A stretch of DNA of 56,766 nt, the filler included, from Dugesia japonica (Eukaryota), in the NCBI GenBank assembly GCA_001938525.1. It is 5 parts of 5 records of this genome, joined end to end, with 100 filler letters (N's around TTAATTAATTAA, not from the genome) between each part and the next. Parts side by side here need not be neighbours in the genome. Positions count along the whole stretch, not along the records: positions 38,340 to 46,705 come from MQRL01601780.1; 4 more parts are not named here. One strand, given 5' to 3'. Shown here piece by piece: positions 1,963 through 56,766 of the stretch (its first letter is position 1; every line of letters starts with the position of its first letter). The position numbers and the translations under genes were made by a program. The notes beneath the pieces are model-generated. The model saw only the letters and a list, made by a program, of their open reading frames with translations, ran no database searches and had not been told where the DNA came from.

Positions 1963-3458
1963 CTTATGGATTATGCCACACTAGCGAGGTAAAATTTTAA
2001 AATCGTATTGATATTTAATTAAATGCTAAAGTAATATACTTATCATTACTAATGTTATCATGTTGATTGAATGTCATATTAATATAATTATCGATTAGAA
2101 TTTTATTTATTTAGACTTTTAGGTTATAGGGAGTTTGAGTTGAGTGGGTTTATAGTGACGGTCTATGTGGCTCCTTTATAATTTATCATAATCATTATTT
2201 AATGTTATAAATTACTGAGTAATCAGGTTAGCTTTAGCTGTTAGTTATAAACTAAATTATCATTTTATTTGCACGATTATTTAAGTAAATTAACCAATTA
2301 CGGATACCTTATTGACGTAATTACATTACATTATATGTTAGTCGTGAGTTCATATTAAGTTTTTTTAGAAAGAAGATAAAAATCTCCTATGAAAAAATCT
2401 ACGAAATATTTGCGGTTATTCACGAAGTCTTTTATTACGTTGATTATTAAGTGCACTTAAGAAAAAAGATACCCAGCTTCTAGGGACTGAGACCAGATAC
2501 GATGAAATNNNNNNNNNNNNNNNNNNNNNNNNNNNNNNNNNNNNNNNNNNNNNNNNNNNNNNNNNNNNNNNNNNNNNNNNNNNNNNNNNNNNNNNNNNNN
2601 NNGCTTAGAGACCAGTTAGTTTTAGAATAAATAAGAATGACTAGAAATTAAATAAGATAGTTTAATCTTGGACTCCATGTAAACAACAAAGTCACAAAAT
2701 AAATTAATCAAACCGAGGATCTATAGCATCTTATTAGCGCATTACAGATACCTCGAGCTACCGTAGATCATACGCACCAAAAACCCGCCGAAAGTAAGGT
2801 GAACTGCACTTTCATTGAACCTACTACAAAATTCTTTGTTGGCATCCTATGAACATGACTGAGCCCTACCATCCGTTTGTGAGATGATATTATTGTTGGG
2901 GTGAAACACCCAGTTGGAAAAGAAAATCAATTGAATACTAATATTATAACAATCATACTAATAAAAGAAGAAAATCAAAAAGAAAAATAAAACTGCAGAA
3001 AGGAAACACCAGATAAATGAATTCAACCCAAATCAATTTTTACAATTAAAGAAAATATAATTATTAATAAAAAAATAAGTAAATGATCGGCAAAATAATA
3101 ATTAATTAACGAAGAAAAAATTAATTAATTTTTTTGAAATTGGTCAAAAAATCGGTTTTTGAAGGATATCTTTGTCCCAAAAAATTGCACGAGGCCCTAG
3201 CAAAAAAATCTGTAAAGGAAATGATACGGGGCAATAGGATTTTGCAACAAAGAAACGTTATCAACATTGTAAGGTTCAGGAAAAGGGTTGAAATAATGGG
3301 TCAATAAGAGGCCTGAAAAGAAACATAAAACAAAGCCATGAAAATACGAAGGTGCTCTAAAAATAGGCATCAATAAGGCATCAGAAAATTGTCAAAATTT
3401 TTAGAATTGAACACAAAATACCAATGAAAAACAAGAAACTGAAAACAAAAATAGCCGG

Positions 3459-3504
3459 CCAATGCGGTAAGAATTGAGTTGCATCTGGAATGGTATATAA
3501 ACCC
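3459..3504 (+). promoter_or_regulatory. Promoter: CCAAT box, GAGTTGCAT, TATATAAACCC
   Basis: CCAAT at 3459 and TATATAAA at 3494. Same motifs and the same 35-nt spacing on the minus strand at 40472/40437. Confidence 0.75.
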
Positions 3505-3816
3505 CCTGAATTTTAGAAGAAGCAACAACAGAAATTTTTGTAATTCACCTGGTGTTAACAGTGAACTAATCAAACTTTCTTAACTATTATTGAAAAAGGA
3601 ATCGAGGAGTAATTTAGTAAATAACAATCATGAAATAGCCATAAGTCTGTATTTTAATTTCAACAATCGACGTACTATTATTTATATTGTTATCAGAACA
3701 AGTATCAACTTTTCAGTCAAGTGTGGAAACAGTAACTAGCATCAGAATATTAGCAAAACTATCGAACAAGAAAGTTTCAGTGTTTTCCCCTCGTTGCAGT
3801 TAAATCCTATATTGAA

Positions 3817-3823
3817 AGTGAGC
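3817..3823 (+). promoter_or_regulatory. Leader-exon splice donor (ttgaaA|GTGAGC)
   Basis: GTGAG donor followed by T-rich sequence. The homologous position in the minus-strand copy is ctataA|GTAAGT (40143|40142), preceded by the shared tcagtgtt...cgttgc(c)ag motif. Confidence 0.7.
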
Positions 3824-4779
3824 TGAAGTTTTTGTTTATTAATTCTTGATTGTAAAAAAATTAATTTTATGCGTCAAAAATATAAGGATTCATTTCATAA
3901 TTATTCAGTTATTTATTCTATTTTTAGATTTAGTTATAATATTTAGTGATATAGTTATCGACATATAATGCCAGTATCAGGTGTATGATATAGACGTTGA
4001 TCAATTGCCTGAAATCATAATTTCCATTAACACGCAATCCACAATATCATCTAGCTCAATTCCAGTTGTTTAACAATTAACGAGTAGAATGATGTATCAT
4101 GCATCTACACAGGCAAAAGCAAGATTACCTCCACATGCTCACTAGCAAAGATAACGCGTGTATAAGTCTCCAGCCGGAGTTACTAACAACAAGAAAATCA
4201 ATATAAATTATTTGTGTTGACACGACTATATAGATTCATTCAGTTACTCGGTTTGTTATATACTTAGATAAATCGTGCAAATACCATATTAGGTATTCCG
4301 TGATCCTGCCAAAGCCTACCATTTTTTGGGCGAAAGCAAATAAATTCTAATTGATGTGTCGTAAACCATAATTCAAATTTCACAGATAGTTTCCTAGATT
4401 TTTAAACAGCAACTGAATCAATCATCTACTTATCAGTAGAATTACTAACCCAGAGAATCAACCTAATTTCCATGCATAGCTGAGAATAGTCATTTATAAC
4501 TCTGCCAGGCAGATTGATCACACACCAGTTAGATTGGAATGGCACACATGCTCAACTACAGAAAAATTTCCACACCAGGTGGCAATTAGCCTAGTAAATG
4601 TTAAATGAATTGATTCCGACATCATTATTAACATGTTTAGCAATCGTACATATCGAGGCAAGTTCATTTTGCAAATATAACAATTAAGCTATGCTGTTCC
4701 TACCTTATGTTTAGCCTCATTTAAAGCATTATTACAATGCGTATTATTAATCATAAGATGACTATTAGTGCTGCTAGTA

Positions 4780-4988
4780 CGAACAATTATAGTATATATC
4801 ACCATCATCAATATCATTTACTATTAAATTAATTTCTATTTATCCCTATTTGTCCTATGAACATTATTATTGTTCATATTATCGTTATTACTGGTATTAT
4901 GTCGTTTGTTATTATAAACATGATTATAGGTCTTACGATTATTAGCATTATCATAGTTGCTGTTATTTCTAGCATAATTATTATTATG

Positions 4989-5021
<33 letters not shown>

Positions 5022-5070
5022 GTTACTATTAGAGTTATTATCATTATGATTAATATTAATTACTATTGCG
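4780..5070. repeat. Degenerate (ATT)n microsatellite inside the LTR-like unit
   Basis: Visible triplet repeat; produces the spurious poly-Ile and poly-Asn ORFs. Confidence 0.9.
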
Positions 5071-5432
5071 GTTGCTGGCAATACTGATATATAATTCCAA
5101 TGTTTTATTACTATTCAGATTAAGATCATTATTAACACTAATAATATATGTTTACAGGGATTTACTAATGTTCTAATTAAAATAATGATTAACCACATTG
5201 TCATGCAAAGCGCACTTATCTAAAACCCCACACGATCGTTCCGGCAAATTTAGCACTATTATAGTCTTCATTTTATATACAGCCTATTTAACATGCTATG
5301 AGTATAATCGGGATCCTGTCAACATTGAGTTACCAATGTATGCTTCCAGGTTACCAGTTGTTATAATTAACACCGAATGGAAACTCGTGTCACTATAATT
5401 TAGTTATAATTTAGGTCTATAATTTATTTTAG

Positions 5433-5621
5433 ATGTCTGTAATTTTGAAAGATACTCTGAGATTTATACGTCGGGAAAGACAACGTGCACGCCGTAAGCA
5501 ATTAATCTGTCATCTTCTCTTCCCCGGTATAATTCTTTCCCCAGATGAATTAGATTTGCAATGTTTTAAGTAATTGTATTTTCTGCCATGGGAAGTAGAT
5601 ATAGATGCTGACACGGAATAG
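5433..5621 (+). pseudogene. Cassette A: ~62-aa unknown protein with one internal stop
   Basis: ttttag|ATG. Reads MSVILKDTLRFIRRERQRARRKQLICHLLFPGIILSPDELDLQCFK*LYFLPWEVDIDADTE. Homolog at 38796-38964 (minus). Confidence 0.7.
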
Positions 5622-5796
5622 TTCAATTTTGATGATCAAGAATTTATTACTGTGATTTGTATTGTAGAATTAATATAGTTGCTAGTTAAAATTTGTTTTG
5701 CTTTTCCAAATTATTAATGTCATAGGCCCATGTTGGTTGGGGTCATCATAATTTCTACTTAATTTATTTAATTTGTCGTTTATTTTTTCTTTATAG

Positions 5797-6217
5797 TGGA
5801 ATACAAGTGGGATATCCTTTTAGATCGATCAACCGGTTGGACTGTATTTAAAAGGTATAGGAACCAACACAATCGAGATGCGGGGGTTCTAGTAGACCGA
5901 TCCAACTTATCGGTGGAAGAAATAAACGATGAGCGGCAGTGGGATTCTAATGAGTATCGAGCTTATTACACTTGGAATGGCCCTGATCGCTCACGGGCAG
6001 TTTATCATGCGGTCACGACCACGCAGATAGACATTAATGGAGAACCGCGAATAATTCGGGAATGGTAGGAAGGCCCTTCTGTTGTTGATATTACTACCAA
6101 CCAGCTACCAATTTTTTTCCAATTTAAGTGCATTCGTACAAAATCATTTATGGAATATTCGAAATTCTGAGGAGGGAAGTAGATAAGAGAACGTTCCAAA
6201 TGTCACCCATGATGTAA
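5797..6217 (+). pseudogene. Cassette B: unknown protein, split A|TG start, 90 aa open then stop and probable frameshift
   Basis: ttatag|TG GAA TAC. 32 of 76 identities, gap-free, with the ORF at 38636-38340 (minus). Similarity continues past the TAG at 6066 (W*EGP vs WCDGP). AATAAA at 6257. Confidence 0.75.
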
Positions 6218-6415
6218 CCCCAACCTGATTTTCATTATGACCTTTCAATAGTTGTTAATAAAAACTTTCTTGTCATAATTACATTTTTTTGTGTTACGTT
6301 TATTTACTATTTATTCTTGTCTTAATAAATAAAGTAGTGAGCAACCATCTTTTAAAAAGGTTTTTCGTTGTAGAAGTCTGCTTTCTGTACTTATTGGCGT
6401 CATTTTATTTTATAG

Positions 6416-6774
6416 TGCACTCTTCACTAAATCAGTCAACTGCTCCTACAAAAAAGGTGAGAGAAACGAGCGAGAACCTAGAAATGACCTGGGACGTTTA
6501 CAAATTAGCTAAGCGTCGTTGGGAGACGGATACCACTACTGCGGAAAGCAAGGTGAGCCGGTATAAAAATAAGCGCATAGCGTTTAGAAAAGAAGCCGAG
6601 GCCTCACATGAACAAGAACGGCTATGGAAAAGTCAGGTTGAGTCTTTTGCCGAAATTATCCGGTCCCTCCATGACCGTGAAAATAAACTGGTGTCCGATA
6701 TTTTGACTTTAAAAAAGGCCATGCCGCTCGAGCCGCTGATGATCGATAAGGGCATGCAAACTTCACGGCCCTGA
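6416..6774 (+). CDS. Cassette C: 119-aa predicted coiled-coil protein, split A|TG start
   Basis: ttttatag|TG CAC TCT, open to TGA, AATAAA at 6800. Gap-free similarity to 10582-10242 (minus). The first ~42 aa of the called 161-aa ORF look intronic. Confidence 0.7.
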
Positions 6775-6921
6775 TCTTTTATGAGCTTATAGTTTTGTAA
6801 ATAAATGACTTTTGGATTTATATTAACTTGCCTTCCAGTTGTTTATGTTGATTTTAAGAATTTTCTTTTTAATTAAATATTAATAGTAATCGGACCACCT
6901 TATAATTTTAATTTGTTTTAG

Positions 6922-7253
6922 TGCCACGAATCCAGTTACCCGCCAGTTTGCGTAGGTGTTATCGAATGATCCAAAGGTTGCTTCTAGAGTCCCACGTTAA
7001 GCAAAAAAACGAAAGAGCGTTGTCACGACACTTGACCCAGAGAAATCTCCTCATTAAAAAACGTGACCTAATCGTCAGAAAGCAGAGTGAAATTATCGAG
7101 CAGACCAAACAACTGCTCACGCATAAAATCAAATTCTTAGAACAATATATTACGGATTTGGCTAACCGGCTAGAACAAGAGGCGGGGACTCGCTGGAATA
7201 GCGAGGATGATGACACCGCTTTTGGCTTCTCATCTGAAGAGCCTACTCAGTGA
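6922..7253 (+). CDS. Cassette D: 110-aa predicted coiled-coil protein with acidic tail, split A|TG start
   Basis: tgttttag|TG CCA CGA, open ORF with heptad-like L/I pattern, AATAAA at 7293. Confidence 0.65.
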
Positions 7254-9014
7254 TTAGACTCGGGTGCTCTCAATTTCATGTGATTAATTNGTAATAAATT
7301 TTTGTATAGAATCATGTTCATTTAATTTACAAATAACCATAAAGGGAAAATAGTGAACCCGAAACAAAGGTATACCGGTGTGTACCCCAGATAAATATGG
7401 GGGTCAACCGCTCTGTACTGAAAATCTAATTAGGGACATTAGATAAATTCTTGAACGGGTCCTCTGAGGGCTGTCTTTTCCCCAGCCACAATTTTTCTAT
7501 ACCTCAACTCAGGTGGAACCCCAACATTATTATTATTATTAAATTAATATTGTTTTACTAATTTTGTTTTACTAGTTCTAATTCTTTTCTTATTTTTTCT
7601 CATTTTATCAGCAATTTATTATTATTTTTTAAGTAATCTAACTTTTCTGAACTTGATTTTTGTAAATTTAATATGATGTTTTCAAATAATTTCTGGAAAA
7701 TTACAATCGAAATTCGAGCTAAATAGACATGAAAATAATCAAATAAAAAAAATATTTTATTGATTAAAAATTTTTATTAATTCACCATTATAAATTTATA
7801 TTTTTACATAATCATGTAACAAAGATCTGTTATGCTTAATTGAGCAATGATCAGCTCATTATAATTATTTTCTAATATTCAAATGTCGAATACAAATTAG
7901 ATTTCGTAAAAATATACAAAATTTTTAAATTTATGTATTGAATTATAATTTCAAAATTTTATATTTTAAAATTTCCTCCTTAAAACAAAATTACTAAATT
8001 AACAATATTACCAATAATATATGAAGAATAAAAATAAAGAGAAAATGAAGTGATGAAGAAAAAGAAAANNNNNNNNNNNNNNNNNNNNNNNNNNNNNNNN
8101 NNNNNNNNNNNNNNNNNNNNNNNNNNNNNNNNNNNNNNNNNNNNNNNNNNNNNNNNNNNNNNNNNNNNNNNNNNNNNNNNNNNNNNNNNNNNNNNNNNNN
8201 NNNNNNNNNNNNNNNNNNCAAAGAAGAAATTGGTCAAATTATATCAAAAGGAGAATTAATGAATTTTCACAGTTTAATCCAACGAGAACTTTTTTAGATC
8301 ATGTTTTAATTTGTGATGATAGAAATTCAAAAATTTCTACTGATAAATTTTTTATTGGAAAAGTAGAATGTTTTTTTGATAAATTTATCCAATAAAATAT
8401 GGAGGAGTTTTAATATAATAAAATTAAATCAGCAACATTTTCAACCTAATCGAGTAGTTACATAGTAGCACTCCCGCTTATCCACCCGGGCGAGAAATTT
8501 ATTTTCAGGTCGACCTTTTTATTCATAAATATTTAGTAAAAATTTTGTAAAAACTTTTCTATTTTTGACAATTTGAAAAGTGACCAATACACACACAAAA
8601 AAAAACTTTTCCCCGGTCTTTTATCATGGCACTCATCATTCGAAGCAAAATTTTACTGCGATTAAAAATATTATAGTTAAAAGTCAAGATTATATATATA
8701 CAACCAATTAAATGAAAAATAACATTACAATTCTTCATGAGGTCTATTAACATTGAAANNNNNNNNNNNNNNNNNNNNNNNNNAACATTAAATTAATAAT
8801 ACTTGCACAGAAAAAATTAAATGCAAATGACATTGCAATTCTCTTGGAGGAATATTAACATTGAACAAAAAAAAGCAGTAAATAACAAAATTTTCAAACT
8901 AATATCTATTCAAATTAAATCTTGTTTTCTATCCATCTGGTTGAGCTGTCTGGAACTTGTTAGTTGAATTGCTAAAAAATAAAAATTAAATAATTTCAAT
9001 TAACAAATAAAAAT

Positions 9015-10241: not shown

Positions 10242-10582
10242 TCACAGAAAAAAACACGAACAAATACTAAATAAAGAGGATAAACCTAAGATTAACGTTA
10301 TTTCATCCTTTAGGTTTCTGTATAGCAGCCACAGGGCTCTCAAATTGTTGAATACAGTCGCTTCTCTGTCAGCATAGACTTTGATAGTTTCTGCCATCAA
10401 CCGGTTGGCTTGGTGGAGCGCCAACTCCTTCTCTTTTAATTGTTGATATTTTGACGCCTGTTATGTCGTCTGGCTCTTTAATTACAGCACTTTGTTCTGC
10501 AGCTCTCTGCGCTCTTCTTTCCATTTCGTCTGCATAGTAATCACATCTCTTCTAGATATTTTGCTATCGGGCGTTGAATTCA
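10242..10582 (-). pseudogene. Cassette C homolog (coiled coil), split A|TG start, two internal TAA stops
   Basis: gattttag|TG AAT TCA gives MNSTPDSKISRRDVITMQTKWKEERRELQNKVL*LKSQTT*QASKYQQLKEKELALHQANRLMAETIKVYADRE, sharing W-x9-KV-x3-K...ExE...AExI-x4-DRE with 6416-6774. Confidence 0.7.
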
Positions 10583-11071
10583 CTAAAATCATAAGAGTTA
10601 TTTTTAAAATCGACTACCCAACAAAATAACAATTGAAATTCATAAACGAAAAATTTTAAGATTGTTTTAATTATTTTTGACATTCATAAACACTTCTACT
10701 AAATCTATTATTTTTAATAATGATAACGATAATGAAACCTTGATTAATACTTTGTAACTACCCAAATAAAAATCGTTTCATGATAACAACCTAATAATTT
10801 TAGCTCAATTTGATACCGGTTAAACTAATCGTCATGGTTGTTAGTACTTTTCCTTACAACAATCACATTTAATCATGTTCTGATTAACTGATAAAATTTT
10901 CTCGTCCTAGCGTCTACGAAAGGTTTATTTTTAAACAAAAATCACTGAAAATTATTCAAAGACTGCCTCTGTGGCTCATCGTGAAATACATATCACTTTC
11001 TTTTACTCCAACGATAATTCAAAAAAAATAAAATCAAACGAAAATCTCTCAATTAACAAATTTCCACTTTT

Positions 11072-11494
11072 TTATTTTTTATCTACAGATGGATTTGTGA
11101 CAGAACCGCTCAGACTCATCAAATCCCTCACAATTGCCCATTTTTCCTCTTCAGTCTGTGATTCCAACATGGCATTCTCCGAAAAACTGCATTGTATATC
11201 GACTTCTGGTTTATGGTTATCTAACAGAGATGTTTCCGACTCGGTGTTCTCGATAACAGCCATAATCTGACCCCTTTGGTTCGTGAGAAGCTTTAAATTC
11301 GCCTTCATGATTGCAATCCGCTGATTTGCAATATCTAAATCTGCTCTTACATTGATGACATCGTCTGCATAATATCTTTTTTCATTCCTCAACATCTCCT
11401 GGACCTCTGACCATTCGATGTAATATCGCCCGCTGTCGTCTATATACGGCCAAATATAACGGGGCCTTCTGCTTGCTCGTCTAGTTTTATGCAT
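11072..11494 (-). CDS. Cassette E: 140-aa unknown protein with coiled-coil middle
   Basis: Open ORF, GC-richer than flanks; ATG directly follows an acceptor-like tttattag. Confidence 0.6.
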   Translation of the reverse strand: MHKTRRASRRPRYIWPYIDDSGRYYIEWSEVQEMLRNEKRYYADDVINVRADLDIANQRIAIMKANLKLLTNQRGQIMAVIENTESETSLLDNHKPEVDIQCSFSENAMLESQTEEEKWAIVRDLMSLSGSVTNPSVDKK

Positions 11495-38339: not shown

Positions 38340-38636
38340 TGCGGCCGATATAGGGATAAATGCAGGCCCGTCACACCACACTCTCGTAACCTGCCCGGTT
38401 TCCGGATCGGTGACGGTGACGCGATGCAAAACCTCGCGGGTCCGGTTGGGATCTCTCCATTCGTAAAAGGCCTGGCGTTCGGACGCAGCTTATTCTCTTT
38501 CATTTTCCGCATCGATGGAAGGCATGTTGGAGTAATCCGTAAGGACCCCCGCATTACAATCATGAGGATTCCAATACCGTATAAAAATTACCCTATTGGT
38601 CCGACGATTGAATAGCGTTTCCCAAGGAAATTCCAT
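38340..38636 (-). pseudogene. Cassette B homolog (one internal TAA, truncated by piece end)
   Basis: tttgtag|aATG. Reads MEFPWETLFNRRTNRVIFIRYWNPHDCNAGVLTDYSNMPSIDAENERE*AASERQAFYEWRDPNRTREVLHRVTVTDPETGQVTRVWCDGP. Confidence 0.85.
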
Positions 38637-38795
38637 TCTACAAATAATAAACATAATTTTTTGGTTTAATTTACGGTATTAATAAAGATATTTATAGATT
38701 AAATAGGGATGGGAGTAAAAAATAATTACAACTAGTTATCTATCTAGATTTATATTCTCATACAAATAAAACAAAATGCGTTGATAAAACGATTA

Positions 38796-38964
38796 TCATT
38801 CCTCATCGATGTCCACCTTTTAAGGTAGCGGGAACATCTCGGCAAAACTCCTGAGATATGTTTCGTCCGGATGTTCAATTATGCCATTAGAGAGGATATG
38901 TGCTAAAAGCTGCTTCCTCCGAATTTTGAATCAATCTTAACATTTTTAATAATCGATGGGGCAT
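38796..38964 (-). pseudogene. Cassette A homolog (frameshift and TAA)
   Basis: KIRRKQLLAHILSNGIIEHPDETYLRSFAEMFPLP*KVDIDEE aligns with 5433-5621. Confidence 0.8.
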
Positions 38965-41594
38965 CCTACTNGGCTTCCTAATAAATATAGCAATCAAAAT
39001 ACATTTTCCTCCATTTAAAACAAAAGTAATTATCTCTTCAGTTTACCCCTTTCTGATTTTAAGTTCAGCTAACAAAAAAAACATCAGTGACTGGGGTTAT
39101 TATTTCGTCAATAACATTGTAGTCAGCGTATAGTAGTAGAGTTATTTTATCGATCGAATTAGTTGAAAATTAAATCACTTGCCAGAAATCAATTCATTGA
39201 ACAAAAGTTATCTGATAGAAAAACATAATTTCTTTTGGGTTCAAATGATGATAAACATTACTGATGATAGTATTACTATTAATAAATGTTAATAAAAGGA
39301 ATAATAAGTGCTTATGATTAGGCAAGGAAAGTTTCATTTGTGGCAATAGTAATATTTATCATGATAACACTGCTACCGGTACTAATAAATACCCGATTGT
39401 TGTCGCCTTTAAGATTGATAAAGAAAAATCCACTTTTATGAACAACGAAGTTGGAATAATCTAGCGATAATTGTTATAGAAGGGTGAACTGGATTGTTAA
39501 TTTGTTCGAAATTAATTACGATTATATCTAGTTCCTTTTTTAATTTACCGCTATTGAGAGTTGCTTAGTTACCTAACACAACTTCTATCACGTAACAACC
39601 TCCTGCAGACCTATCGACAATAATGATGTGATATTGCAAGTAGGCAAGAGAAGTAGCCATGTGTGTATCGGCGACAGCATTTTGATACACGTCTTATTAG
39701 TGCATGATAGTCTGAGTAACGCCGATTTTGTTTTATACTGATGCATACATTCATTTCAACGTTTAATGCGACATGACATTCGCGAAACAGACAGTCAAAC
39801 ATACCTAAAAAATTTATTTCGAAGATTGTGTTATCAAATTTACGACTGGTTTCTGTATTCAATTATTCACGGATGTAAAGGCATGTATGGCACGATGTCC
39901 TCATTTTTCTGTCGCAATAAAGCAGAAAATTGGGGATGCGTTGATCAGAACCAGCATGTTCATTTATGAGGCTGCAATTTTTAGGCTATTGAATAATAGG
40001 GTGGTAACAAAGATTTTAGCACGTAATATTTATGAAATTAATAATGACACATTCACTTTGAATATTTATTAATTAACATTTAATAAATTATTTCGAAACA
40101 AGCAATTTTCTTATTAGAAAAAATTATAAACTCATTACTTACTTATAGATTGGGTTTTTATTCTGGCAACGGGTTGAACACTGACAAATTGGCAATTTCG
40201 ATTTGAGAATAATGGATTGATTTTAATTTGGTTCTCCTTTAAAATATAGTAATTAATCGCAAATAATTTTCTTTTCAAGTTTACTTTGGTCTCGTGCTCG
40301 GTTTCCAATAACGATAGTTTACTTCTTTTATTTCTTTTTTTAAACTGATTATATAGCGTGATATGTCTTTCACACTCGTAATTAAATCGAAGAAAAAAAT
40401 GGTTGTTTTTTAGACTTATTTTCCATGGGTTTATATAGCTTCCCAAATGCAACTCGTTATCGTTGCTATTGGTTGTCTAATTTTAATTCAAATTTCTTCG
40501 ATTCTATTGGAGTAGCCTTGGATTTTTTACACATTTTTGACTATTTTCTGTTACGTCATTGGCATCTACTTTAGGAGTGACATGTGATTGTCATTTCTTT
40601 GTTTTATTTTTATTTTCAGATCTCTTATTGGTCCAATCTTCTAATCCCTGTGGAAACCTTCTGGATAGTGGTAAGAGCTGGAGATCTTGGAAATAATTTT
40701 TTCGTGGTTTTTAAGATTTATTTGTGGTGGGACAAAAATTTGGTTTATACATTGTCTAAAGGACTTATTATGCGGATGGATGGTTTGTCCTAGAACTGTG
40801 GTAGCGCAAGGGCACATTCGTATGACTTATCGTGCGGGTTTTTGGGAGGGTGTATGTTTGTATGGGGTTATTGGAATTTGTTGGTTGATAAATTGTTGAA
40901 AAGGTAATGTGATGGGGAATATTTGGAATGTCAATTGTGCTTTAATTTCTGATTGGTTGTGGTCGAATTTGATTGATTAATATTTGTGTGTAGTATAAGT
41001 GTGTTAAAAAACTTTTCAAAAGGGGGGAAAAGGTATAGGTGGAAAGAGAATTAATTATCAGATTTTATAAGATTTATTTGAAAATTTTCTGTCGGAAGTG
41101 TATGACGTAATAATGTTTAGAAATGTTTATTTTAGTTAAAATGCTGTATTTTGCTTAAAATGATGAATTTGTTGAAAGTAATAGTATTTTTGTAAAAATG
41201 ATGTATTTTTGAGTATTTTTGAGTGGGCTGGGTTGTTTTTAATATTTTTTGATGGGGGAAGAGTAGAGTCTAGAGTCTCCTCTCTCTAGAGGGGAGGAGA
41301 GGAAAAATTTTTTGGCGGGATATTTAAAAATATATATATATATATTGGTGGGAAATTTTAAAAAAATACTTTTGGTGGAAATTTAAAATTTTACTTTTAA
41401 ATACCGGGAAATTTTTTTTAATTTAATTAAATTTAATTAAATATTTTTTAGAAGACATTTATATTTATGTATGAGATGGGGCAGTCTTAATATTTTGCAT
41501 GGTATTGTGGAGTTTCTATATTTAGCATGTGATGGGGCGGACTTGATATTTTGCAAGGGATGGGGCATTCTAAAATTCAGTTATCTGATTTTCA

Positions 41595-41860
41595 TTGTAT
41601 GTATGTTGCATCTGAGTATCATCTCAGTTGATACCTATTGCATTTTCTTAAAAAAATTCAAAATGGAGGCTATGTTGAGTTTTACAAATTTCTTTTTGGT
41701 GGGAAAAATTTTAAAAAATTCCTAGACACATGATTTACAGTGTATGTGTGTTGCATCTGAGTTGCATACCTATTGCACTTATTAAAAAATCGATAAAAAT
41801 CAATAAAAATTCTCGGCATGTGATTTTTAGTGTATGTGTGTTGCATCTGACTTGCAACCA
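41595..41860 (+). repeat. Three copies of gtatgt(g/a)tgttgcatctga
   Basis: Near 41597, 41742 and 41832. Confidence 0.75.
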
Positions 41861-42051
41861 TATTACAAACATACATCATTCATTAATAAAAAAACTGTTT
41901 ACAACAAAAAACATTTATTACAACAACAACTATTTTTCTTTTCTTCTACTTTAACTTTTTCTACCCTTTAGATGGATTTCTATTGGTTCCTCAATTTCCA
42001 TTGGTCTTTGGTTTGTTTCAGTCCCTTCTACAAACAATAAATTATACATAC

Positions 42052-42150
42052 TGTTGGGGTTTTACCTAGGTGGGTTAATCTTTTGGAAAATTTAGTCTAG
42101 TACTTAGTAAAACCCCGCGAAGAATTTAATCTGGCGTCCCAAAAATCCAG
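42052..42150 (-). mobile_element. 3'-end fragment of a giant LTR-like unit
   Basis: TGTTGGGGTTTTACCTAGGTGGG...AAAACCCCGC..GAATTT.ATCTGG; reverse-complement match to 46806-46930, and resembles the end at 7526. Confidence 0.7.
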
Positions 42151-42364
42151 ATCTTTAAAGAATTTAAATGTAAAATTAATATTGTAGCCGGCGATACAGA
42201 TAGCTTTTCCTAGAAATAGAAAATACTAAATTAGAAAAATTAACTGCAAGTATGGTGAAAGATCGGCTACTTGATACTTAGAATTATGATAAAGATCATA
42301 CCATTTATAGAAACNNNNNNNNNNNNNNNNNNNNNNNNNNNNNNNNNNNNNNNNNNNNNNNNNN

Positions 42365-43061
42365 GCGCTTATGTAATTCAGCAAAGAAGCTGATTACATA
42401 TACATCAAAAGCCGGATTTAAGAAAACAACAAAAATTGTTGATGATTTAATTACTGTTCTTCTCAATAATGACATCGTTTGTTTAGATCTTCCAAGCTAC
42501 ATAGGACAATATGTACTTGACCTCTCGAAATTGAGAATGTATAAACTTCAGTACATTGAGTTGGACAAGTATAAGAAGGAATTTAAATGTAAAATTAATA
42601 TTGTAGCCGGCGATACAGATAGCTTTTCCTAGAAATAGAAAATACTAAATTAGAAAAATTAACTGCAAGTATGGTGAAAGATCGGCTACTTGATACTTAG
42701 AATTATGATAAAGATCATACCATTTATAGAAACAGCATGAACTCATTTATAGGGGAATTCAAAGATAAGAATAAAGGGANNNNNNNNNNNNNNNNNNNNN
42801 NNNNNNNNNNNNNNNNNNNNNNNNNNNNNNNNNNNNNNNNCAGCATGAGAGCCAAAGGCATATCATTAAAGAATACAGAAATATCTCATCAGTCTTACCT
42901 TGACTGTTATAATGAGAAATAATCGGTCTTGGTAGAACAATTTCGAAAAACCACCAAAAATTACCAATTATATAGCATTAAGTCAAATAAAATAGCATTA
43001 ACGAACACGGAGGATAAGTGGGTATGAATTAATAAAAATTAGTAGTGTCCCATATGGACAC
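42365..43061 (+). pseudogene. Polinton protein-primed DNA polymerase B, C-terminal half, decayed
   Basis: PSYIGQYVLDLSKLRMY, AGDTDSF, IGEFKD, RAKGI, KIAL...DK, PYGH. Confidence 0.93.
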
Positions 43062-44470
43062 NNNNNNNNNNNNNNNNNTTTTCCATAAAACCAGTCATTC
43101 AATCAAGTATATTAAACAAACGGTATTTATCTGTTTTTAAATGTTATTTTTATTGTTTTTATTTAGATTATGACTAAAAAAGAAACCATCCTCAAAAGAA
43201 CATTTGTGAACGTATAACTGGTCCTCTTTAGGACCAAAATTCTACATTATTGTATTTATTTAAATAAAAGTTGTTATTATCATTTGTTTTTTTATTATTT
43301 ATTTGAATTCGTTTATCGCAAACACGCATTGTACATAACGAGAGCATATTAAATATAAACAAAAATAATTTAAATATACATTAATAATGAATTTGGACCT
43401 TATTAAAGAATAAATGCTGGAAAATATTGAAAGAAATTATTTCGTAACTGAATTAAAAATATTACCAACTATTCAAGAAGGTAATTAAAAAAATTTTTTT
43501 TGTTTAATTATAAGATTATAAACATAGCTTTATGTTGAAAATAAAAAACACATTGATTAAATAAGGTTTATTATGTAACATGGAAAAAAACAACAAATAA
43601 AAGTGCACAAAATATTTACAACACTTAACAAATTAAGTCTTTTACAACCAAGAAACAAGATGTTGGTGTCATTGTTTTACATTGTACACTAACTCTTAAC
43701 TAATAATTAATAAGTTTACATAAATAAAAAATATATTACAGCTATTTTTCTTCCTATTCACACGACATTGTCTTTGCTTACCAAATGCAATGGATATAGC
43801 GTGCATTTTAACATTTGTTCGGTTTATACTGATTATTTCTGGACTCTGATATTAAATGTTCATGATTAATTTTTTTAGTAATGTTTACTTTTTTTTCCTT
43901 ATAAATCTCGATAGCTGATGTTGGTGGATCAAGTTCAAAAATTCTTCCCAAGTTTTTCATAAAAAATTTCATGTTTTCAAGTAATTTTGGATCAAATTGA
44001 AGTTTTTAAATTCTTTCTTATTGTCTTAATACCTAATTAAATAATAATTATTGTATTAACATTATTAATAATATTATCACCAAACTATCAAGAAATTGAA
44101 TTTCTATCACACCATGAAGACCCATTTGTAGTTTCTTCTCCTACTTATATCGATACGATATGTTGAATATTTATGTCATTGGATTCATAAACGGTTCCAG
44201 ATTGTATTCACACTTTATTTTTCTGCTTTATTAACTATACACCTATTCAAATTGTCCATATAGTTCAGTNNNNNNNNNNNNNNNNCGATTGACAACACTT
44301 TGTATCCTTCATTGGGTAGAGAATTTACATTATCTTCATTATTTTTGTTGCATATATCTATCTGCTTAAGCATTTCATATTGCTTGTGTGATGAATTGCG
44401 AATATCTAACATTTTGAAAATAAGGAAATCTCTAAAAGAATCTCTATTTATATACTTGCTGTGTATGTAT

Positions 44471-45845
44471 TGTTGGAGTGAAACCCCTGGTACGGAGAAT
44501 AAGAATGGCGGTAGGTAAAGCCGAAAGTGAAAAGATAGTCACCAAATGAGGAAACAAAGAATCCAGACAAAGGAAAGTCATAGTTTGGGGAAAGAAAGAA
44601 ATAATTAAAGGAGAAACCAAGACTGGCAGTTAAAACCAACGTAAGGACCAGCAAAATCTAAAATTACAGCGAGAAATAACTCAGAAACAAGAAAGCCAAA
44701 AAAGAAGAAAAGAAGTAATAGAAGATATCAGCCGGAATAAAGAAANNNNNNNNNNNNNNNNNNNNCATTAGACAAAACTAAGAAAATCATAATAAACTAA
44801 TAATTGGTGAAAGAGAAAATAAATTAAAGCAATTAATTAAATTAATTAATGAAAGAAAAACGACGAAATTAAATTAAATTTAGATCAGAAAAACAAAGAA
44901 ATGAACATATAATTAATATTTAAGAAGAAAATAAAATAAATAATTTATTTATTTAAATAAAATAAATCATACGAATTAAAATCATTTATTTTTAAAAGAA
45001 AATTAAATATTTCGCGAAATATGGCAAAAACGACGACTTCCCAGAGTGAAAAAATTAGAAAATAAGATAATTATGGTCAAGAAAACATCGGAGATTTCGA
45101 AAATCTAAGTTAAAAAATCATAGCAAGACCTGGAAAGAAAAATACAATGGTTTCAAGAGTGACCAATGGTTTTTTAATCCAAAAATATCAACCTATAAGA
45201 AGGAATCATGTGACGATCAAACCAATAGAAGCATTAGAAAAATCGTATGACGTCAAATAGCCATTGAAAGGAACAAGGGTGTAAAAAGAAACTGGTATAA
45301 ATACCGATGTAATTTTCATCAAAAGGCAGCTAAAAAACAATCAAAACTTATACTCAAGCAAACTTTGGATCGGAATTTATCTCAAGAGGTATTACTCGTT
45401 TTAAAATTGGTGATTTATAGTGGTTTCCGACTTGATGGATTACAGAAATTATAGGACCCAACATGATGGTTAAGTGGAAAACAATTGGAAGTCATAATAA
45501 GCCAAATAATTCCTGTGTGCTTGCTCCAGATTGAGAGTCAGTCTATGTTAGTTTTTAGTTTTATTGATGTAATTTTAATTTAATGTGCAATGGATGGAAT
45601 TAGCAATAATATAACTTTCCATAACCGGATTTCTTTTATTTAATGTGATTTTATTTTATTTAAATTCTTCTGTTAAACTAACACCAGTAATTAGAGCTAA
45701 AATTAACTCACCTTTTTAGGAACTAAGTAATAAGTAAAATGATAAATTAAAAATGTTTATACTAGGAACAACTACCTAACATATTATGGTTCTCCGCTTA
45801 TGATAAATTTAAACGGATTCTTCAAGTAGATTATTTTGTCTTTCT
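44471..45845 (+). mobile_element. 5' part of another giant LTR-like unit
   Basis: Starts TGTTGGAGTGAAAC (cf. TGTTGGGGTGAAAC at 2894), same A-rich layout, CCATT at 45261 and TATAAATACC at 45296 (35-nt spacing). Confidence 0.7.
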
Positions 45846-46705
45846 AGTAAGTATATAGATAGTGGCAGTCCGCACCACGCACACATTCAGTAGTCCCCCC
45901 CCNNNNNNNNNNNNNNNNNNNNNNNNNNNNNNNNNNNNNNNNNNNNNNNNNNNNNNNNNNNNNNNNNNNNNNNNNNNNNAATAGTACTTAATTTGGGGTT
46001 ACTTTTTTCCTATGTATTTAGTTGAGAAAATTATTCTGCACACAAATTATGTCATGAGATTAATTTCATCGATGAAATTTTACGTAATAGGATTAACTGG
46101 TGTTACTTTTTTCCTGTGTATTTAGTTGGGAAAATTTTTTTATGGGAATTTTTTAAAGAATCCGTGCAAACTGTTCATTTTATATAAATAAAATGAAAAT
46201 TTAAAAGTTTTTTAAATCAAATTTTTATGAGAATCCGGGAAAAACTCCGAAACTTCGAAAATTTTTGAAAAAATTTTTTATCGAGATTTTTACATGAATC
46301 GATGGAGATTATTTTTCACAAATAAAAATTTTTCGAAAAAATTATTTATCATCTTTACATAAAATAGCTATGTCTATTAGATAGAAAATTCTTTGTTGAT
46401 TCTAAATATATAAACCTAAAATCGCCAAAGTTTATCCGGAATGAAATAAATGAAGTTTTGTGTTGAAAAAATGTCAAAACTCAGAATTTAGATCTCAGAC
46501 TTCTGTGCACAGAGAATTGCTATCGACTCAAATTTAATATTATTTTATTCAGGAGGAAAAGGTGACTATGCAAAGTTAAAATATCGTCTCGGCAAAAATG
46601 CTCCCTAACGAAGATATTCAGATGTCTTTTTGGATTTGGTAACTTTTTTAGAAAATTAAAAATGTATCTCAAAATTGGTCACAGAGGTATCTATTTGATA
46701 GAGAA

Positions 46706-46805
46706 NNNNNNNNNNNNNNNNNNNNNNNNNNNNNNNNNNNNNNNNNNNNTTAATTAATTAANNNNNNNNNNNNNNNNNNNNNNNNNNNNNNNNNNNNNNN
46801 NNNNN
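46706..46805. other. Artificial spacer N44-TTAATTAATTAA-N44
   Basis: Linker at 46750-46761. Confidence 0.97.
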
Positions 46806-46930
46806 ACCAGATTCAAATTCATTGCGGGGTTTTACTAGGTCAATTACCCTAGACTTAATTTTATATAAAGTTCGACCCCACTAAATTTAGTCGTATAAAA
46901 AATCAACCCACCTAGGGTAAAACCCTAACA
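46806..46930 (+). mobile_element. 3' end of an LTR-like unit abutting Gypsy pol
   Basis: Ends GGGTAAAACCCTAACA, then pol sequence EVKFGR begins; homologous to 42052-42150. Confidence 0.7.
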
Positions 46931-49430
46931 GAAGTAAAATTTGGAAGAGTCATATTGGACGAAGAACGAGAGCAGCAGACTATAAAGATAATTCAACCAA
47001 ACAATGAAGCACAAAAGATAATAGTAGTTAATAGACGAGCCTTTATGGATGAAGGTTGGGATATAGGATGCACCATGCTCGTGAAGCATTAAATAATCAC
47101 GATAGGAGAGCCAATCAATATAAGGCCATGGCGTCAACCGGTGAACTTAGAATACGAAATTGAAAAAACACTACAGAACTTAGAAGAAAACGACATCATT
47201 AGGAAATGTAATTCAAGATGAAATATGCCACTAGTTTGCATATGTAATAAAGAAAAGAAAAGGCTAAAATTATGTTTAGACTTTCGCCAGCTAAACCAAA
47301 TACCGAAGAAACAAGCATATTCAATGCCAAACACAGAGGAACTGCTAGATAGATTAATTGGAGCCCGTTTTTTCAGCATAATCGACCTAGTCAATACGTA
47401 TTATCAGGTTAAATTGGAGGAATCATCACAGGAGAAAACAGCGTTCTCAACAAAAAAATGTCAATACTGTTTCACGAGGATGCCATTCGGAATTGCAGCA
47501 GCGCCAGTTATATTCCAGAAATTGATGACAAACGTATTGGAAAGCACACCTGGAGCAATGGTATATATGGATGATATTTTCATTTATTCTGATAATGCAA
47601 CGGACCATTTCAAGATGCTTGAAACTGTGCTGAAAAAAGTAGCAAAAGCTTGATTACGTATCAACCCCAAGAAATGCAGTCTCTTGCGGAAAGGGGTAAA
47701 GATTCTAGGACACATCTTTAACGAAAATGTCATTCGAACAAATCCTGCAAAAATAGAAAGTATACAGAACTTTGAGAGACCAGAATGTACAAAACAAGTC
47801 AGAAGCTTTCTGGGTATGTGTAACTACTTCAGGAAATTCATCAAGTGATATTCTGCAAAATTCAAAGCATTAGAAGAATTATGTGGCAGAAGTAAAGACA
47901 AGCTAATATAGACACCGATATGCAACGAGGCATTTCAAGAATTGAAACTAGCTTTAATAAAAACACTAGTGCTAGGTTTTCCAGAAAGAAATAAAAGTTG
48001 CATTTTAGACACTTATGCAAGTTTTAATATTATTGGGGCTGCGGCATCACAGCTGAATGAAAACGGTCGAGAATGAGTGATTGCTTACGGGTCTCGTGTA
48101 ATGAACGCGCACGAAAAAGGATATTGCATAACCAGGAAAAAATTGTTGACAATATACACTTTTGTAATAGTTTCCAACATTATCTATACGGTAGACAATT
48201 CATCCTACGAACTGATCATAAGGCAATAAGTAGATTGGATATGGATATTCAGTTCAAAAAAGAAGAAGCACATTCCAATGCTGGCATGTTATCCAGAATG
48301 GAGTGTGAAACTTGTGTACAATGTGAAATGCAACATAATGAGGCAATAAAAGGTAAGATTAAAACACGAAGACTGTATACCATAACAACGGATATGGAGT
48401 TCAGATGGCAGAAGAATAATGCTGAAATAAAGGATATAATAAAGAACATCAACGAAGACAGAAGTTCAGAATATATAATAAAAAGGGATTGTCAGAACAA
48501 AAAGCGACAAAATATGGATTCTAAAAGAGAAACGATCAGAAGGAATGAAAGAAATTTACACCCTACTAATGCACGCGGGTCAAGAAAAGATATTATATTA
48601 TATTACAAGCGGATATGATATGCTGAATATGCTCGAAATAGTAACAGAAACCACACGAAGATGCGGAGATTGTCAAAAGAATAAAGTGCACACATCAATA
48701 ACGAAAGAAGAGAAAATCACACTGCAAGCTAACCATGTATTTGAAAAGATCTATATCGACGTATGTGGAACGTTCAAAGAGACACTAAGGAGAAAAAAAT
48801 ACATTCTAGCCATAGTAGATCACTATAGTAAATATATGTTATTGTCGGACATAGGAAGACCGGATGAGGAAACCATATGCAAGATAATCATGGATAAATG
48901 GATCCTACGGTTTGGAGCACCAAAATAGATACATATGGATTGCGGGAAGACTTTGGAATCAAAGGTGTTTAAGGATATGACATGCAAAATGTACATAGAA
49001 CTATGTTACTCGAGCCCATACCACCACGGGACAAATGGCTTGGTTGAGAGACAATTCAGAACTATCAGGGACTGCATAAATGCATCTGAAAAAGCATATT
49101 GGGACGAAAATAATTTTGAATTAGAGTTCATAATGAACGCCACATATTGAAAGACGATTAGAACTAGCCTAGCAGCCATGGTGTACGGAAGAGAGATTCG
49201 AAGAGAACGATGGATTGATCATAAAAACGTAGAATAGAAATCGATCTTTGGAGAATTGTACCCAACCCACAGAGCGTTCAAAATTGGTCAGAAAGCATTG
49301 GTGAAAAACGAAGTAAGATCAAAGGACAAGGAAAGATATTATGGTCGATACGAGAAAAATGAAAAGATCCATGAAAGAAGATACAAGGTAGAAGACAAGC
49401 AAGGAAGAGTAATATACAGAAATGTGGAAA
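46931..49430 (+). mobile_element. Decayed Ty3/Gypsy pol (RT, RNase H, integrase)
   Basis: LCLDFRQLN, RMPFG, YMDD, FLGMCNYF, LRTDHKA, HHCC, DVCG, VDHYSK, SPYHHGTNGLVER; several stops and frameshifts. Confidence 0.97.
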
Positions 49431-49969
49431 NNNNNNNNNNNNNNNNNNNNNNNNNNNNNNNNNNNNNNNNNNNNNNNNNNTCCAACATAAAAAATTTTAT
49501 GAAAAGTTTCATAAAAATTTTATTTAATAATAATTGAAGAAATTTCAAATAAAATAAAGAAAATAATTAAAACAATTAATTGTTTTAATATTGCTATTTT
49601 GATAAAATAAATTTTTCACTAGAATTACCCGACTTATTAATAGATATTTATGGATGGAAACTGCAGAAAGTTTAGCAGCGGCTAACAGTTATAATTGCAT
49701 ACAAAACAATTTTCATAAATTAAAAAGAAAATATTATTAATTTTTTTTATATGAAACATATTTTTGGGTAAATACTCAATTATATAAAACATTTTATATT
49801 TTTTGAGTAATTGCTCAGTTATTTAAAACATTATATTTTTGGGTTTATATAAAAAAATTAAGTAACTTACCCAATATTATATAAAGGTTTATATTACCCA
49901 GTATTATATAATATTGAGTATTTACTTAAAAATATAAAATGTTTTATTTCTGTCAATTCTCTAAATTCG

Positions 49970-51199: not shown

Positions 51200-52330
51200 T
51201 ACAGTTTTTCTTTTTTGACATTTTCATAGCTTTGTACTGTCTCATATATTATATCAGTTTTATTTTCCATATCAAATTGTCTCGAAATATATTCGTGAAC
51301 TTTTTTCGATCCAGCATGACATAATAATTGATGAGTATATATTCAATGAATTTGATTTTCATTTCTTTTGGGATCCAAATTTCATTGTGAATTGTATAAA
51401 CAATATTTTCAATAAATTAAAATTTATAATTTCTTTCACAGTTTATGTTCTCTTTAATTACATCGATTTCTTTACACCCTTCTTGCCATTTATAACCATC
51501 ATTTTGTAACACTAAGGCCAATATTTTAGTTTTTAATTTTCCACATTTCGGTTCTTTATGTATAGTCTNNNNNNNNNNNNNNNNNNNNNNNNNNNNNNNN
51601 NNNNNNNNNNNNNNNNNNNNNNNNNNNNNNNNNNNNNNNNNNNNNNNNNNNNNNNNNNNNNNNNNNNNNNNNNNNNNNNNNNNNNNNNNNNNNNNNNNNN
51701 NNNNNNNNNNNNNNNNNNNNNNNNNNNNNNNNNNNNNNNNNNNAGTTCTTAATCGAAATCTCTGTCCATACAAATAATGTTTAAAATGTTCTGTAAAATA
51801 AACAATCGCCAAAAGTTCTTTTCTGGTAATGCAATACCCCAGCTCGTGTTAACTCATCGCTTTAGATTCGTCAGCAATTATTTTTTCTTCACCATCGTTA
51901 TTAATTTGACTTAAAACTGCATCTATTCTATCAAAGCTAGCATCAGTATCTAATATAAGTTCTTAAGAAAAATTCGGAAATGCTAAAACTGGAGCTTTTA
52001 TTAGTTTAGCTTTCAAATTTTTAAAGAAATTTCGCACTCATCTGCCCAGTATATGTTTTTCTGGTGACTACCACATTGATTTTCTAAACATTTTGAATAC
52101 TTTGTGTAATACTTTATAAATTTCCTATAACAATTTGCTAGGCCTAAAATATTTCTCAACTTTTTAACACATTTTGGGGTTTCAAAATTAAAATTTTCTT
52201 CAATCTTTTTATTATCAGTATGAGTTCCTTTTGAATTAATAATATGACCCAGAAATTTTATCTCGTTTTCATGAAATGACATTTAGATGGACTTATTTTT
52301 AAACCGGCTTCTTTTATACGTTTCAAAACA
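51200..52330 (-). mobile_element. Decayed Ty3/Gypsy RT-RNase H-integrase N-terminal fragment
   Basis: IKFLGHII, LGLANCYRKF, LDTDAS, KELLAIV, HYLYGQRFRLRT, LCHAG. Confidence 0.92.
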
Positions 52331-56042: not shown

Positions 56043-56462
56043 CTAGTCTTCATCATCACTATCAAATTCTATTTTGCAAATTTTTATTTCATCGATATGA
56101 AAAATTGGATAAATTAATCCTTGATCACTTTCTTTAAAACCTAATAATTTTATTTTTAATCGAGCATGAACTTCATCAGGTAATTGTCTATTCCGCTTTC
56201 CCTTTTCATTATATATACCTAATTTTTTGACTTTCTTGATGAAAAAAGATTCTGGATCAAATGTTAGCAATCTTGGCTTAGCAATCAATAAATTATTGTT
56301 CAATCTTTCAATATCATCTCCACTAATATCTTTAATTAGGAATTCGAATTTACAATTTTTAATTACAATCATATCATAACATTCAATAGTGATTGCTTTC
56401 TTTAGAAAAACTATTTTATAACCGAAAAATATTTTTGATTCTTGGAATGTATCTTTATTTAT
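56043..56462 (-). CDS. Unknown ~110-140-aa protein, possibly a viral-type OB-fold ssDNA-binding protein
   Basis: Frame open 30 codons upstream of the called Met, back to cactag|. Beta-strand pattern ARLKIKLLG...YPIFHIDEIKI and acidic tail FDSDDED. Function is an inference. Confidence 0.45.
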   Translation of the reverse strand: MNKDTFQESKIFFGYKIVFLKKAITIECYDMIVIKNCKFEFLIKDISGDDIERLNNNLLIAKPRLLTFDPESFFIKKVKKLGIYNEKGKRNRQLPDEVHARLKIKLLGFKESDQGLIYPIFHIDEIKICKIEFDSDDED

Positions 56463-56546
56463 CTAGTGATTTAATATAAATTTTATTATTATTATTTTTA
56501 TTTTTATTATTATTATTATTATTATTACTATTATAATTATTATTAC

Positions 56547-56766
56547 TGTTGGGGTAGAACACAGTCATTAGTAAATATTTATTTAGGAAGGCAAAAGGAA
56601 AGCAACGAAATAGGTGAACGGTCCAGAAGGATAAAAGATTAAGAAACCCAGATAAGAATAGTAACGAGAGAAACATCAGGAATGAAGAAGATATAATTTA
56701 TTAATGTAATCAATAAATTATTATGAAATGAATAAGCAATTAAATATTTAAAGGAATTTAATTGCA
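56547..56766 (+). mobile_element. 5' start of another giant LTR-like unit beside an (ATT)n tract
   Basis: TGTTGGGGTAGAACAC follows the ATT array at 56483-56546; A-rich continuation as after 2894 and 44471. Confidence 0.7.

Follow-up and report, generated by a model that had tools for sequence, protein, structure and literature searches.

A diverse family of planarian mobile elements, most likely giant solo long terminal repeats, with a predicted spliced array of small genes

A stretch of Dugesia japonica DNA of 56,766 nucleotides (assembly GCA_001938525.1; hereafter the window), comprising five pieces of the genome joined end to end, was analysed for a gene arrangement present at 2894-7526 (copy 1) and, diverged and on the opposite strand of another piece, at 40660-38340 (copy 2). 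We consider it fairly probable that the copies represent a diverse family of mobile elements, 4 to 5 kb in size, and that these are in all likelihood giant long terminal repeats (LTRs) of planarian Ty3/gypsy elements, left as solo LTRs and carrying a spliced unit of accessory genes. In the proposed arrangement, a promoter comprising multiple CCAAT boxes and a TATA box would start RNA approximately 630 nt inside the left end. An ATG-poor leader of 270 to 300 nt, ending in A, would be spliced over an intron of 1.2 to 1.6 kb to one of four acceptors, each belonging to one cassette (A to D). The cassettes would be alternative last exons of this one shared non-coding leader. For B, C and D, the junction of the leader A with the acceptor TG would create the AUG. 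The choice of acceptor and poly(A) signal would give one small protein per mRNA, with B, C and D each using a poly(A) signal of its own. We infer transcription, splicing and poly(A) use from the signals listed here for copy 1 (a slash marks a predicted splice site).

2894..7526, plus strand: copy 1, complete element of 4633 bp, TGTTGGGGT...ACCCCAACA ends, TTAT on either side.
3270..3504, plus strand: copy 1 promoter, approximately 600 nt inside the left end; CCAAT at 3459, GAGTTGCAT at 3476, TATATAAACCC at 3494.
3524..3817, plus strand: predicted leader exon of copy 1, ending in A; its one ATG (3630) opens a 2-codon frame.
5433..5573, plus strand: cassette A of copy 1; ag/ATG, 46 aa, N-terminal half basic.
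5797..6068, plus strand: cassette B of copy 1; ag/TG, 89 codons past the predicted split start, AATAAA at 6257, 6324 and 6328.
6416..6774, plus strand: cassette C of copy 1; ag/TG, 118 codons, AATAAA at 6800, donor-like sites at 6457 and 6553.
6922..7253, plus strand: cassette D of copy 1; ag/TG, 109 codons, AATAAA at 7293, then approximately 230 nt to the right end.

Judged from its sequence, 40660-38340 on the minus strand is a genuine, highly diverged relative of copy 1. BLASTN aligned 3302-3504 with 40630-40427 at 68% identity (E 5e-10). A single chain of collinear TBLASTX matches (E 3e-24) covered the promoter, A (19/39) and B (32/85), in agreement with the homologues of A and B that an earlier note on this DNA had described in that order. 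The CCAAT, GAGTTGCAT and TATA motifs that it had reported were likewise all recovered, on the minus strand. Homology reached upstream to approximately 40660, beyond the limit of 40580 given previously.

40427..40660, minus strand: copy 2 promoter; CCAAT at 40631, 40562, 40510 and 40472, GAGTTGCAT at 40455, TATA (TATATAAACCC) at 40437.
40143..40407, minus strand: predicted non-coding leader exon of copy 2; no ATG, ends in A, start placed from the TATA box.
38978..40142, minus strand: predicted intron of copy 2; 1165 nt vs 1615 nt in copy 1, no clear alignment.
38820..38977, minus strand: cassette A homologue of copy 2, broken; candidate acceptor 38977, ATG 38964, conserved part 38927-38820.
38340..38637, minus strand: cassette B homologue of copy 2; ATG 38636 one base past the acceptor, stop 38492-38490, ends in the gap.

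The promoters were aligned over approximately 250 nt at 65% identity (global score 221.5, shuffle maximum 102.5). Four CCAAT-type boxes are in register, those of copy 2 with 3301, 3370, 3421 and 3459 of copy 1, where two are TCAAT. From CCAAT to TATA, 31 of 46 positions are identical in an ungapped alignment. The composite pattern of GAGTTGCAT followed by TATA occurs twice in the whole window, once in each copy. Both leaders are poor in ATG, with 1 vs 5.1 expected in copy 1 (p 0.026) and 0 vs 4.1 expected in copy 2 (p 0.015). The donors are GTGAGC at 3818 in copy 1, 324 nt after TATA, and GTAAGT at 40142 in copy 2, 295 nt after TATA. When 54 nt around them were compared, the two GTs fell in register with a score of 35.5, which approximately 1 in 1000 dinucleotide shuffles equalled. 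The A/GTAAGT donor claimed at the homologous place, about 300 nt after TATA, was thus found where expected. Short dispersed repeats at 41471-41867 were separately seen to contain GTTGCATCTG, the core of the conserved promoter motif of copy 1.

Local nucleotide scores between the copies were tested region by region against 200 dinucleotide shuffles. The promoter scored 89 (shuffle maximum 33) and B scored 28 (maximum 27). Similarity stayed at shuffle level in the leader (p 0.62), intron start (p 0.15), A (p 0.92) and A-B spacer (p 0.64), and was marginal in the intron middle (p 0.035). Uniform similarity, named beforehand as the result that would speak against the claim, was not seen; promoter and B stood out, and the TBLASTX matches were significant. 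Global scores of the leader, intron middle, A and A-B spacer lay near or just over the top of 15 to 60 shuffles, and faint leftover similarity in these regions is possible.

Copy 2 is broken, with an in-frame stop in B (38492-38490) and a frameshift in A, where the ATG at 38964 and the conserved part from 38927 are in different frames; both had been missed previously. It is also truncated by the gap at 38339, directly downstream of the B homologue. Since the sequence is cut there, copy 2 is silent on C and D, and the cassette order it had been taken to confirm is upheld for promoter, donor, A and B only. We read 38340-40660 as a decayed, truncated copy that supports the promoter, the donor and the A-B order.

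Conservation of the proteins was assessed by codon position. The B proteins share 31 of 75 residues after the methionine, ungapped, or the 32 of 76 reported earlier when the methionine is counted; the protein score was 168 (maximum 59 in 2000 shuffles). The other two frames of the B region gave 20/75 and 16/75 identities and contain stops in both copies. For A, the protein match was 15/28 (E 9e-6). Identities at first, second and third codon positions were 44, 50 and 26 of 76 in B and 13, 21 and 11 of 31 in A. In B the proportion of synonymous differences (pS) was 0.80, which is saturated, vs 0.38 for nonsynonymous differences (pN), with a bootstrap interval of 0.24-0.59 for pS-pN; the frame was chosen by protein similarity, which itself favours a pattern of low pN and high pS. 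The codon alignment thus bore out a selective pattern, and the proposal that selection had kept signals and proteins is supported; the ratio of nonsynonymous to synonymous rates (dN/dS) called for alongside could not be given, because dS is saturated. As copy 2 is broken in both cassettes, the pattern indicates that selection was at work in the ancestors of the copies and not on copy 2 itself.

In the DNA of copy 1, the leader-final A and the acceptor TG spell ATG in an open frame for B, C and D. The phase needing one added base is open for 89 codons in B, 118 in C and 109 in D; the remaining two phases are open for 8/17, 4/31 and 15/10 codons, respectively. T-rich acceptor-like sites were collected from the window (n=359). 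At least 80 codons were open in the one-added-base phase at 3 of the 15 sites with TG vs 4 of the 344 others (Fisher p 0.002), the three sites being B, C and D, and the acceptor filter had been defined after the cassettes were seen, which counts against this test. A scan of both strands for a T-rich acceptor, TG or ATG and a frame of at least 40 codons returned six matches, namely all four cassettes of copy 1, the B homologue of copy 2 and an unrelated site at 358; its filter, too, was fixed with the cassettes already known.

B of copy 1 has no internal methionine and no ATG whatever. As its acceptor is followed by TG, unspliced RNA would be unable to start B at an AUG. B of copy 2 has its own ATG (ag/aATG, at 38636), as the earlier note had stated. 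This methionine, and that of a database homologue described below (P0001), sits exactly at the split-codon register of copy 1 B. The suggestion that a split start can be gained or lost is sound insofar as the two copies differ in it, which does not fix the direction. The AUGs of B, C and D appear to be made by splicing to the shared leader.

AATAAA is present after B, C and D of copy 1, and approximately 90-120 nt separate a poly(A) signal from the next acceptor. Within cassette C, strong AAG/GTGAG donor-like sites are present at 6457 and 6553 (plus strand). They were treated as cryptic or regulatory, because a splice from either one to the acceptor of D would miss the D frame; they could alter poly(A) choice or yield short out-of-frame products. 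At 6216-6225 (plus strand), 150 nt past B, copy 1 contains a near copy of its right-end decamer with one mismatch. This may be chance or a trace of modular growth.

Homologues of the cassette proteins were sought in several collections. A full hidden Markov model (HMM) search with B returned two matches in 1.84 billion sequences, P0001 and P0002. P0001, a 94-aa protein from a 512-nt ENA record, matched B with 31/65 identities (E 8.5e-17). P0002 was rejected as a B homologue, being a Calx-beta protein with a repeat-summed score and 0 matched stretches. A word-index search returned nothing with B alone; with a 3-row alignment, 1 of 53 candidates held up, namely P0001 itself. In Pfam, no family was above the cut-off for A-D and the copy 2 pieces (8 element-related queries among 20). 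Sub-threshold Pfam matches were obtained for C, D and the open reading frame (ORF) at 11494, and none for B. Since those of C and D are consistent with a coiled coil, C and D are probably coiled coils. No exact sequence of the A, C and D frames tested was present in a collection of 15 billion proteins. The ESM Atlas gave no usable match for B, and for C only weak unnamed matches at low recognition. PDB sequence and Rfam searches gave 0 matches each. An AlphaFold model of B had a mean predicted local distance difference test (pLDDT) of 48; Foldseek comparison of it with viral and PDB libraries gave 0 matches at E 0.001, which carries little weight at that pLDDT.

No transmembrane segment was found in A-D (maximum 19-residue hydropathy 1.24, 0.06, 0.96 and 0.29, respectively), and none begins with MG, the start of a myristoylation motif. 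Membrane fusogens of the MDG1 sORF2 or FAST-like type were ruled out for A-D on both counts. The proteins might be small, soluble regulators with an accessory role, either aiding the element or modifying the host cell, and C and D might act as coiled-coil adaptors; our confidence in this proposal is low. GC content at third codon positions (GC3) is 0.43-0.50 in the cassettes vs 0.16-0.18 in the window's ENaC and Polinton genes.

The termini of copy 1 fit TG...CA and TGTNR, and form an inverted repeat of 9 bp perfect and approximately 20 bp imperfect. Six ends in the window have TGTT.G.GT in common. TTAT flanks copy 1 as a target duplication; a 4-mer match is expected by chance at approximately 1-3%, and the evidence is weakened because one flank is a (TTA)n run. 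Among flatworms, one LTR family is reported to have mostly 4-bp duplications, its solo LTRs included (PMC4558846). The U3 promoter/poly(A)/U5 layout is matched by motif only, TATA lying approximately 600 nt in and the last AATAAA approximately 230 nt from the right end. From these features we infer a probable LTR identity, a giant Ty3/gypsy solo LTR being the best fit for copy 1.

The same leader-cassette unit might instead be carried by a non-autonomous DNA element mobilised by an integrase, Ginger-like or unclassified, which we consider unlikely. TGTNR termini are described for most Gypsy LTRs and also for Ginger transposons (PMC2836005); TGT...ACA ends and a 4-bp duplication fit either class. 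A primer-binding site (PBS) or polypurine tract (PPT) was found at 0 of 6 ends, and internal direct repeats of the ends were absent, which would also suit a DNA element. The same source gives Ginger terminal inverted repeats (TIRs) of approximately 40-300 bp and either CCGG/CCGT duplications or RTATAY targets (PMC2836005). In copy 1 no TIR of that length was present, only 9 bp being perfect and the left and right ends differing in type beyond, and the duplication is TTAT. The promoter near the left end and the last poly(A) signal near the right end form an LTR layout. No integrase-like transposase domain was detected in A-D, a point against a DNA element, although a non-autonomous copy would lack one anyway.

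Several observations weigh against the giant solo LTR with a spliced unit. A PBS was found after 0 of 3 right ends and a PPT before 0 of 3 left ends, as expected for solo LTRs. The parent element of copy 1 was not found in the window, whose gypsy internal fragments showed no TGTTGGGG-type LTR with a PBS or PPT at the places inspected. No left end of copy 2 was recognisable when sought upstream (p 0.47-0.65). Were the element an LTR, its full-length RNA would need to bypass several poly(A) signals. Scored with a generic donor matrix, which is not planarian-specific, the leader donors come no higher than 4th of 212 and 5th of 99, below the two donor-like sites inside C. Between A and the B acceptor of copy 1 there is no AATAAA. 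GTG spans each of the B, C and D acceptors in frame and could serve as an alternative start, and C and D have later in-frame methionines approximately 15-20 codons in. P0001 is a single record whose last third has no match to B. No confirmed homologue was found for C or D, the sensitive homologue search having covered neither D nor A nor the 11494 ORF.

Some of these points would suit a reading in which genuine ORFs under selection are expressed by other means than split-start splicing (from GTG or a downstream ATG, from short transcripts, or behind upstream coding exons), with ag/TG partly due to chance. The in-frame GTGs, the later methionines of C and D and the strong donors in C are all accommodated by it. 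We regard it as improbable, because three independent ag/TG sites are all in the open phase, the methionine of copy 2 and P0001 occupies the same register, and B is without any ATG.

Still less probable is an operon in which A-D are resolved by spliced-leader (SL) trans-splicing, the acceptors being trans-splice sites. The host is a flatworm, and the approximately 90-120 nt from poly(A) signal to next acceptor would suit the short operon spacers that flatworms are described as having (PMC12582326). Reported flatworm leaders end in a complete ATG (PMC12582326). That phase would give B, C and D 8, 4 and 15 codons instead of 89, 118 and 109, which disfavours a flatworm SL. In addition, a cis donor ending in A is kept at the aligned place in both copies, and B has no downstream AUG of its own, whereas C and D have later methionines. 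A small host gene family, duplicated, decaying and merely lying among repeats, would explain the purifying pattern and the lack of transposon domains in A-D, but can hardly be entertained, given that the TG...CA ends are precise and come with a target duplication, that 57 kb contain several related ends, that copies are broken and that the codon style is unlike that of the host gene in the window.

Further candidate ends and members of the element family were found in the window.

44471..45902, plus strand: probable additional member of the family, with left end TGTTGGAGTGAAAC and an upstream part rich in A; CCAAT at 45163 and 45222, TATA at 45296; cut by a gap.
56547..56766, plus strand: further left end; adjoins a (TTA)n run, cut by the end of the window.
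42052..42156, minus strand: another right end, of 105 nt, linked to a fragment resembling a Polinton DNA polymerase.
46806..46930, plus strand: further right end; gypsy pol fragment directly after.
10260..11494, minus strand: possible distant relative; ag/ATG 140-aa ORF at 11494, broken ag/TG cassette at 10582.

The left end at 44471 was supported at p 0.010, with CCAAT and TATA motifs approximately 830 nt in; alignment of its promoter to copies 1 and 2 was not significant (p 0.07 and 0.10). The left end at 56547 scored 108.5 against copy 1 (maximum 105.5 in 300 dinucleotide shuffles), and reached only p 0.05 in a local test. The right end at 42052 scored 58.5 against that of copy 1 (maximum 42 in 300 shuffles). 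The right end at 46806-46930 scored 51 against 42052 (maximum 29); its direct comparison with copy 1 gave no significance (p 0.15-0.73). Profiles of the promoter, the two ends (left and right) and the pre-donor sequence, run with nhmmer, found no copies beyond those used to build them, so that the evidence for the 44471 member and for the element at 9.9-12.9 kb comes from weaker tests.

GTAT precedes the left end at 44471 (44456-44470, plus strand) and follows the right end at 42052 (42032-42051, minus strand), both within (GTAT)n. These two ends may belong to one insertion on mis-oriented pieces, which would represent a second 4-bp duplication. Ends lie next to (TTA)n or (GTAT)n microsatellites at 7527-7540, 56480-56546 and 44460-44470, with the exception of 46930, which is beside gypsy pol; this suggests a target preference.

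The region 9900-12950 (minus strand) possibly represents a distant family. It contains CCAAT at 12654 and 12594, the intact 11494 ORF followed by AATAAA, and a 22-nt TGTTG...CAACA at 9910-9931. The 10582 cassette is weakly C-like (p 0.006, best of 15 pairs; p 0.007 ungapped), and GC3 of the 11494 and 10582 frames is 0.44 and 0.50, as high as in cassettes A-D. The promoter of this region did not align (p 0.69 and 0.88).

The copy 1 unit was compared with known systems. Drosophila gypsy and springer-subclade env resemble it in forming a start codon at a splice junction within a Ty3/gypsy element, where AT is joined to G (PMC2585583; 10.1101/2023.08.03.551782). There the junction is AT/G, with a single acceptor and one large Env ORF after pol (PMC2585583; 10.1101/2023.08.03.551782), whereas in copy 1 it is A/TG, with three such acceptors and one with a full ATG, small ORFs and separate poly(A) signals, all within one TG...CA pair. 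The sORF1/sORF2 genes of the MDG1 group (412, Mdg1, Stalker, Blood) are likewise small accessory ORFs of Ty3/gypsy elements, of 70-110 aa, under purifying selection and with an alternative poly(A) site between them, but they precede gag on RNA that is not spliced, and the sORF2 product resembles a transmembrane fusogen (PMC11952523). A-D have no transmembrane segment and apparently need splicing, as predicted here.

In the Burro elements of planarians, the internal sequence reaches 25 kb and the whole exceeds 30 kb (PMC6431247), from which LTRs of several kb would follow. Burro and GYPSM1, giant Ty3/gypsy elements of dugesiid planarians, share with copy 1 the host group, the implied multi-kb LTRs, accessory ORFs and host-regulatory domains (PMC6431247). 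They differ, on comparison by description only, in that the Burro extras lie in the polyprotein or an upstream accessory ORF, with no splice-selected array in the LTR (PMC6431247). Echinococcus ta-TRIM and lennie solo LTRs are also from a flatworm, have 4-bp duplications and start spliced transcripts, but they are short, lack coding capacity and are joined by splicing to host sequence (PMC4558846), whereas copy 1 has its own conserved ORFs. The adenovirus major late unit resembles copy 1 in its mode of working: a non-coding leader transcribed from one promoter is spliced to numerous coding exons on its 3' side, and there are several poly(A) sites (PMC7070027). There is no sign of kinship; the adenovirus leader is not described as giving any part of the AUG (PMC7070027), and the copy 1 unit is in a chromosomal mobile element.

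The combined architecture was not met in the literature searched, which included few subscription papers and no supplements; Burro supplements or Repbase reports may already show these ORFs. Each part of it has a precedent. LTRs are usually regarded as non-coding control regions. ORFs within or overlapping retroviral LTRs are exemplified by sag of mouse mammary tumour virus (MMTV) and nef of human immunodeficiency virus (HIV). We tentatively propose, at a confidence below that given to the solo LTR family itself, that planarian retroelements turned an LTR into a multi-gene unit, in which the leader gives the A of AUG to interchangeable last exons, splicing gates translation, and solo LTRs keep making accessory proteins even once the rest of the element is gone. 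If so, ag/TG together with a poly(A) signal would suffice for a new ORF to join the array. A terminal repeat would then contain four protein genes under selection, picked out by splicing and lacking start codons in the genome; these would escape gene finders, and planarians would harbour a hidden class of transposon accessory proteins. Planarian LTR elements are major targets of PIWI-interacting RNAs (piRNAs) (PMC8532177).

The remaining contents of the window were recorded. A single-ORF DEG/ENaC (ASC) channel gene of 528 codons, with one N, is present at 16343-17929 (minus strand), its best match being Schmidtea mediterranea asic at 45%, which points to a probable planarian host. A Polinton-like cluster at 25265-27158 (plus strand) encodes a phospholipase A2 (PLA2)-like domain, an rve integrase and an A32-type ATPase. 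The fragment at 42282-42632 resembles what we take, by its motif, to be a protein-primed DNA polymerase. Decayed Ty3/gypsy internal copies, of approximately 70-80% mutual identity, are present at 13400-14700, 18440-21970, 29600-34800, 46930-49500 and 51400-52300. ORFs of 137-179 codons with no Pfam match were found at 54090-55003 (minus strand), 56043-56462 (minus strand) and 52303-52716 (plus strand), and two overlap in different frames at 54476-54629. Linkers of 100 nt (44 N, TTAATTAATTAA, 44 N) are at 9015-9114, 27565-27664, 38240-38339 and 46706-46805. Sequence is duplicated across several gaps, for example 42157-42314 and 42576-42733. Because the linkers join separate pieces and sequence is duplicated across gaps, order and orientation across gaps are unreliable. 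Degenerate tandem repeats with long low-complexity frames occupy 22170-24700 and 35880-37350.

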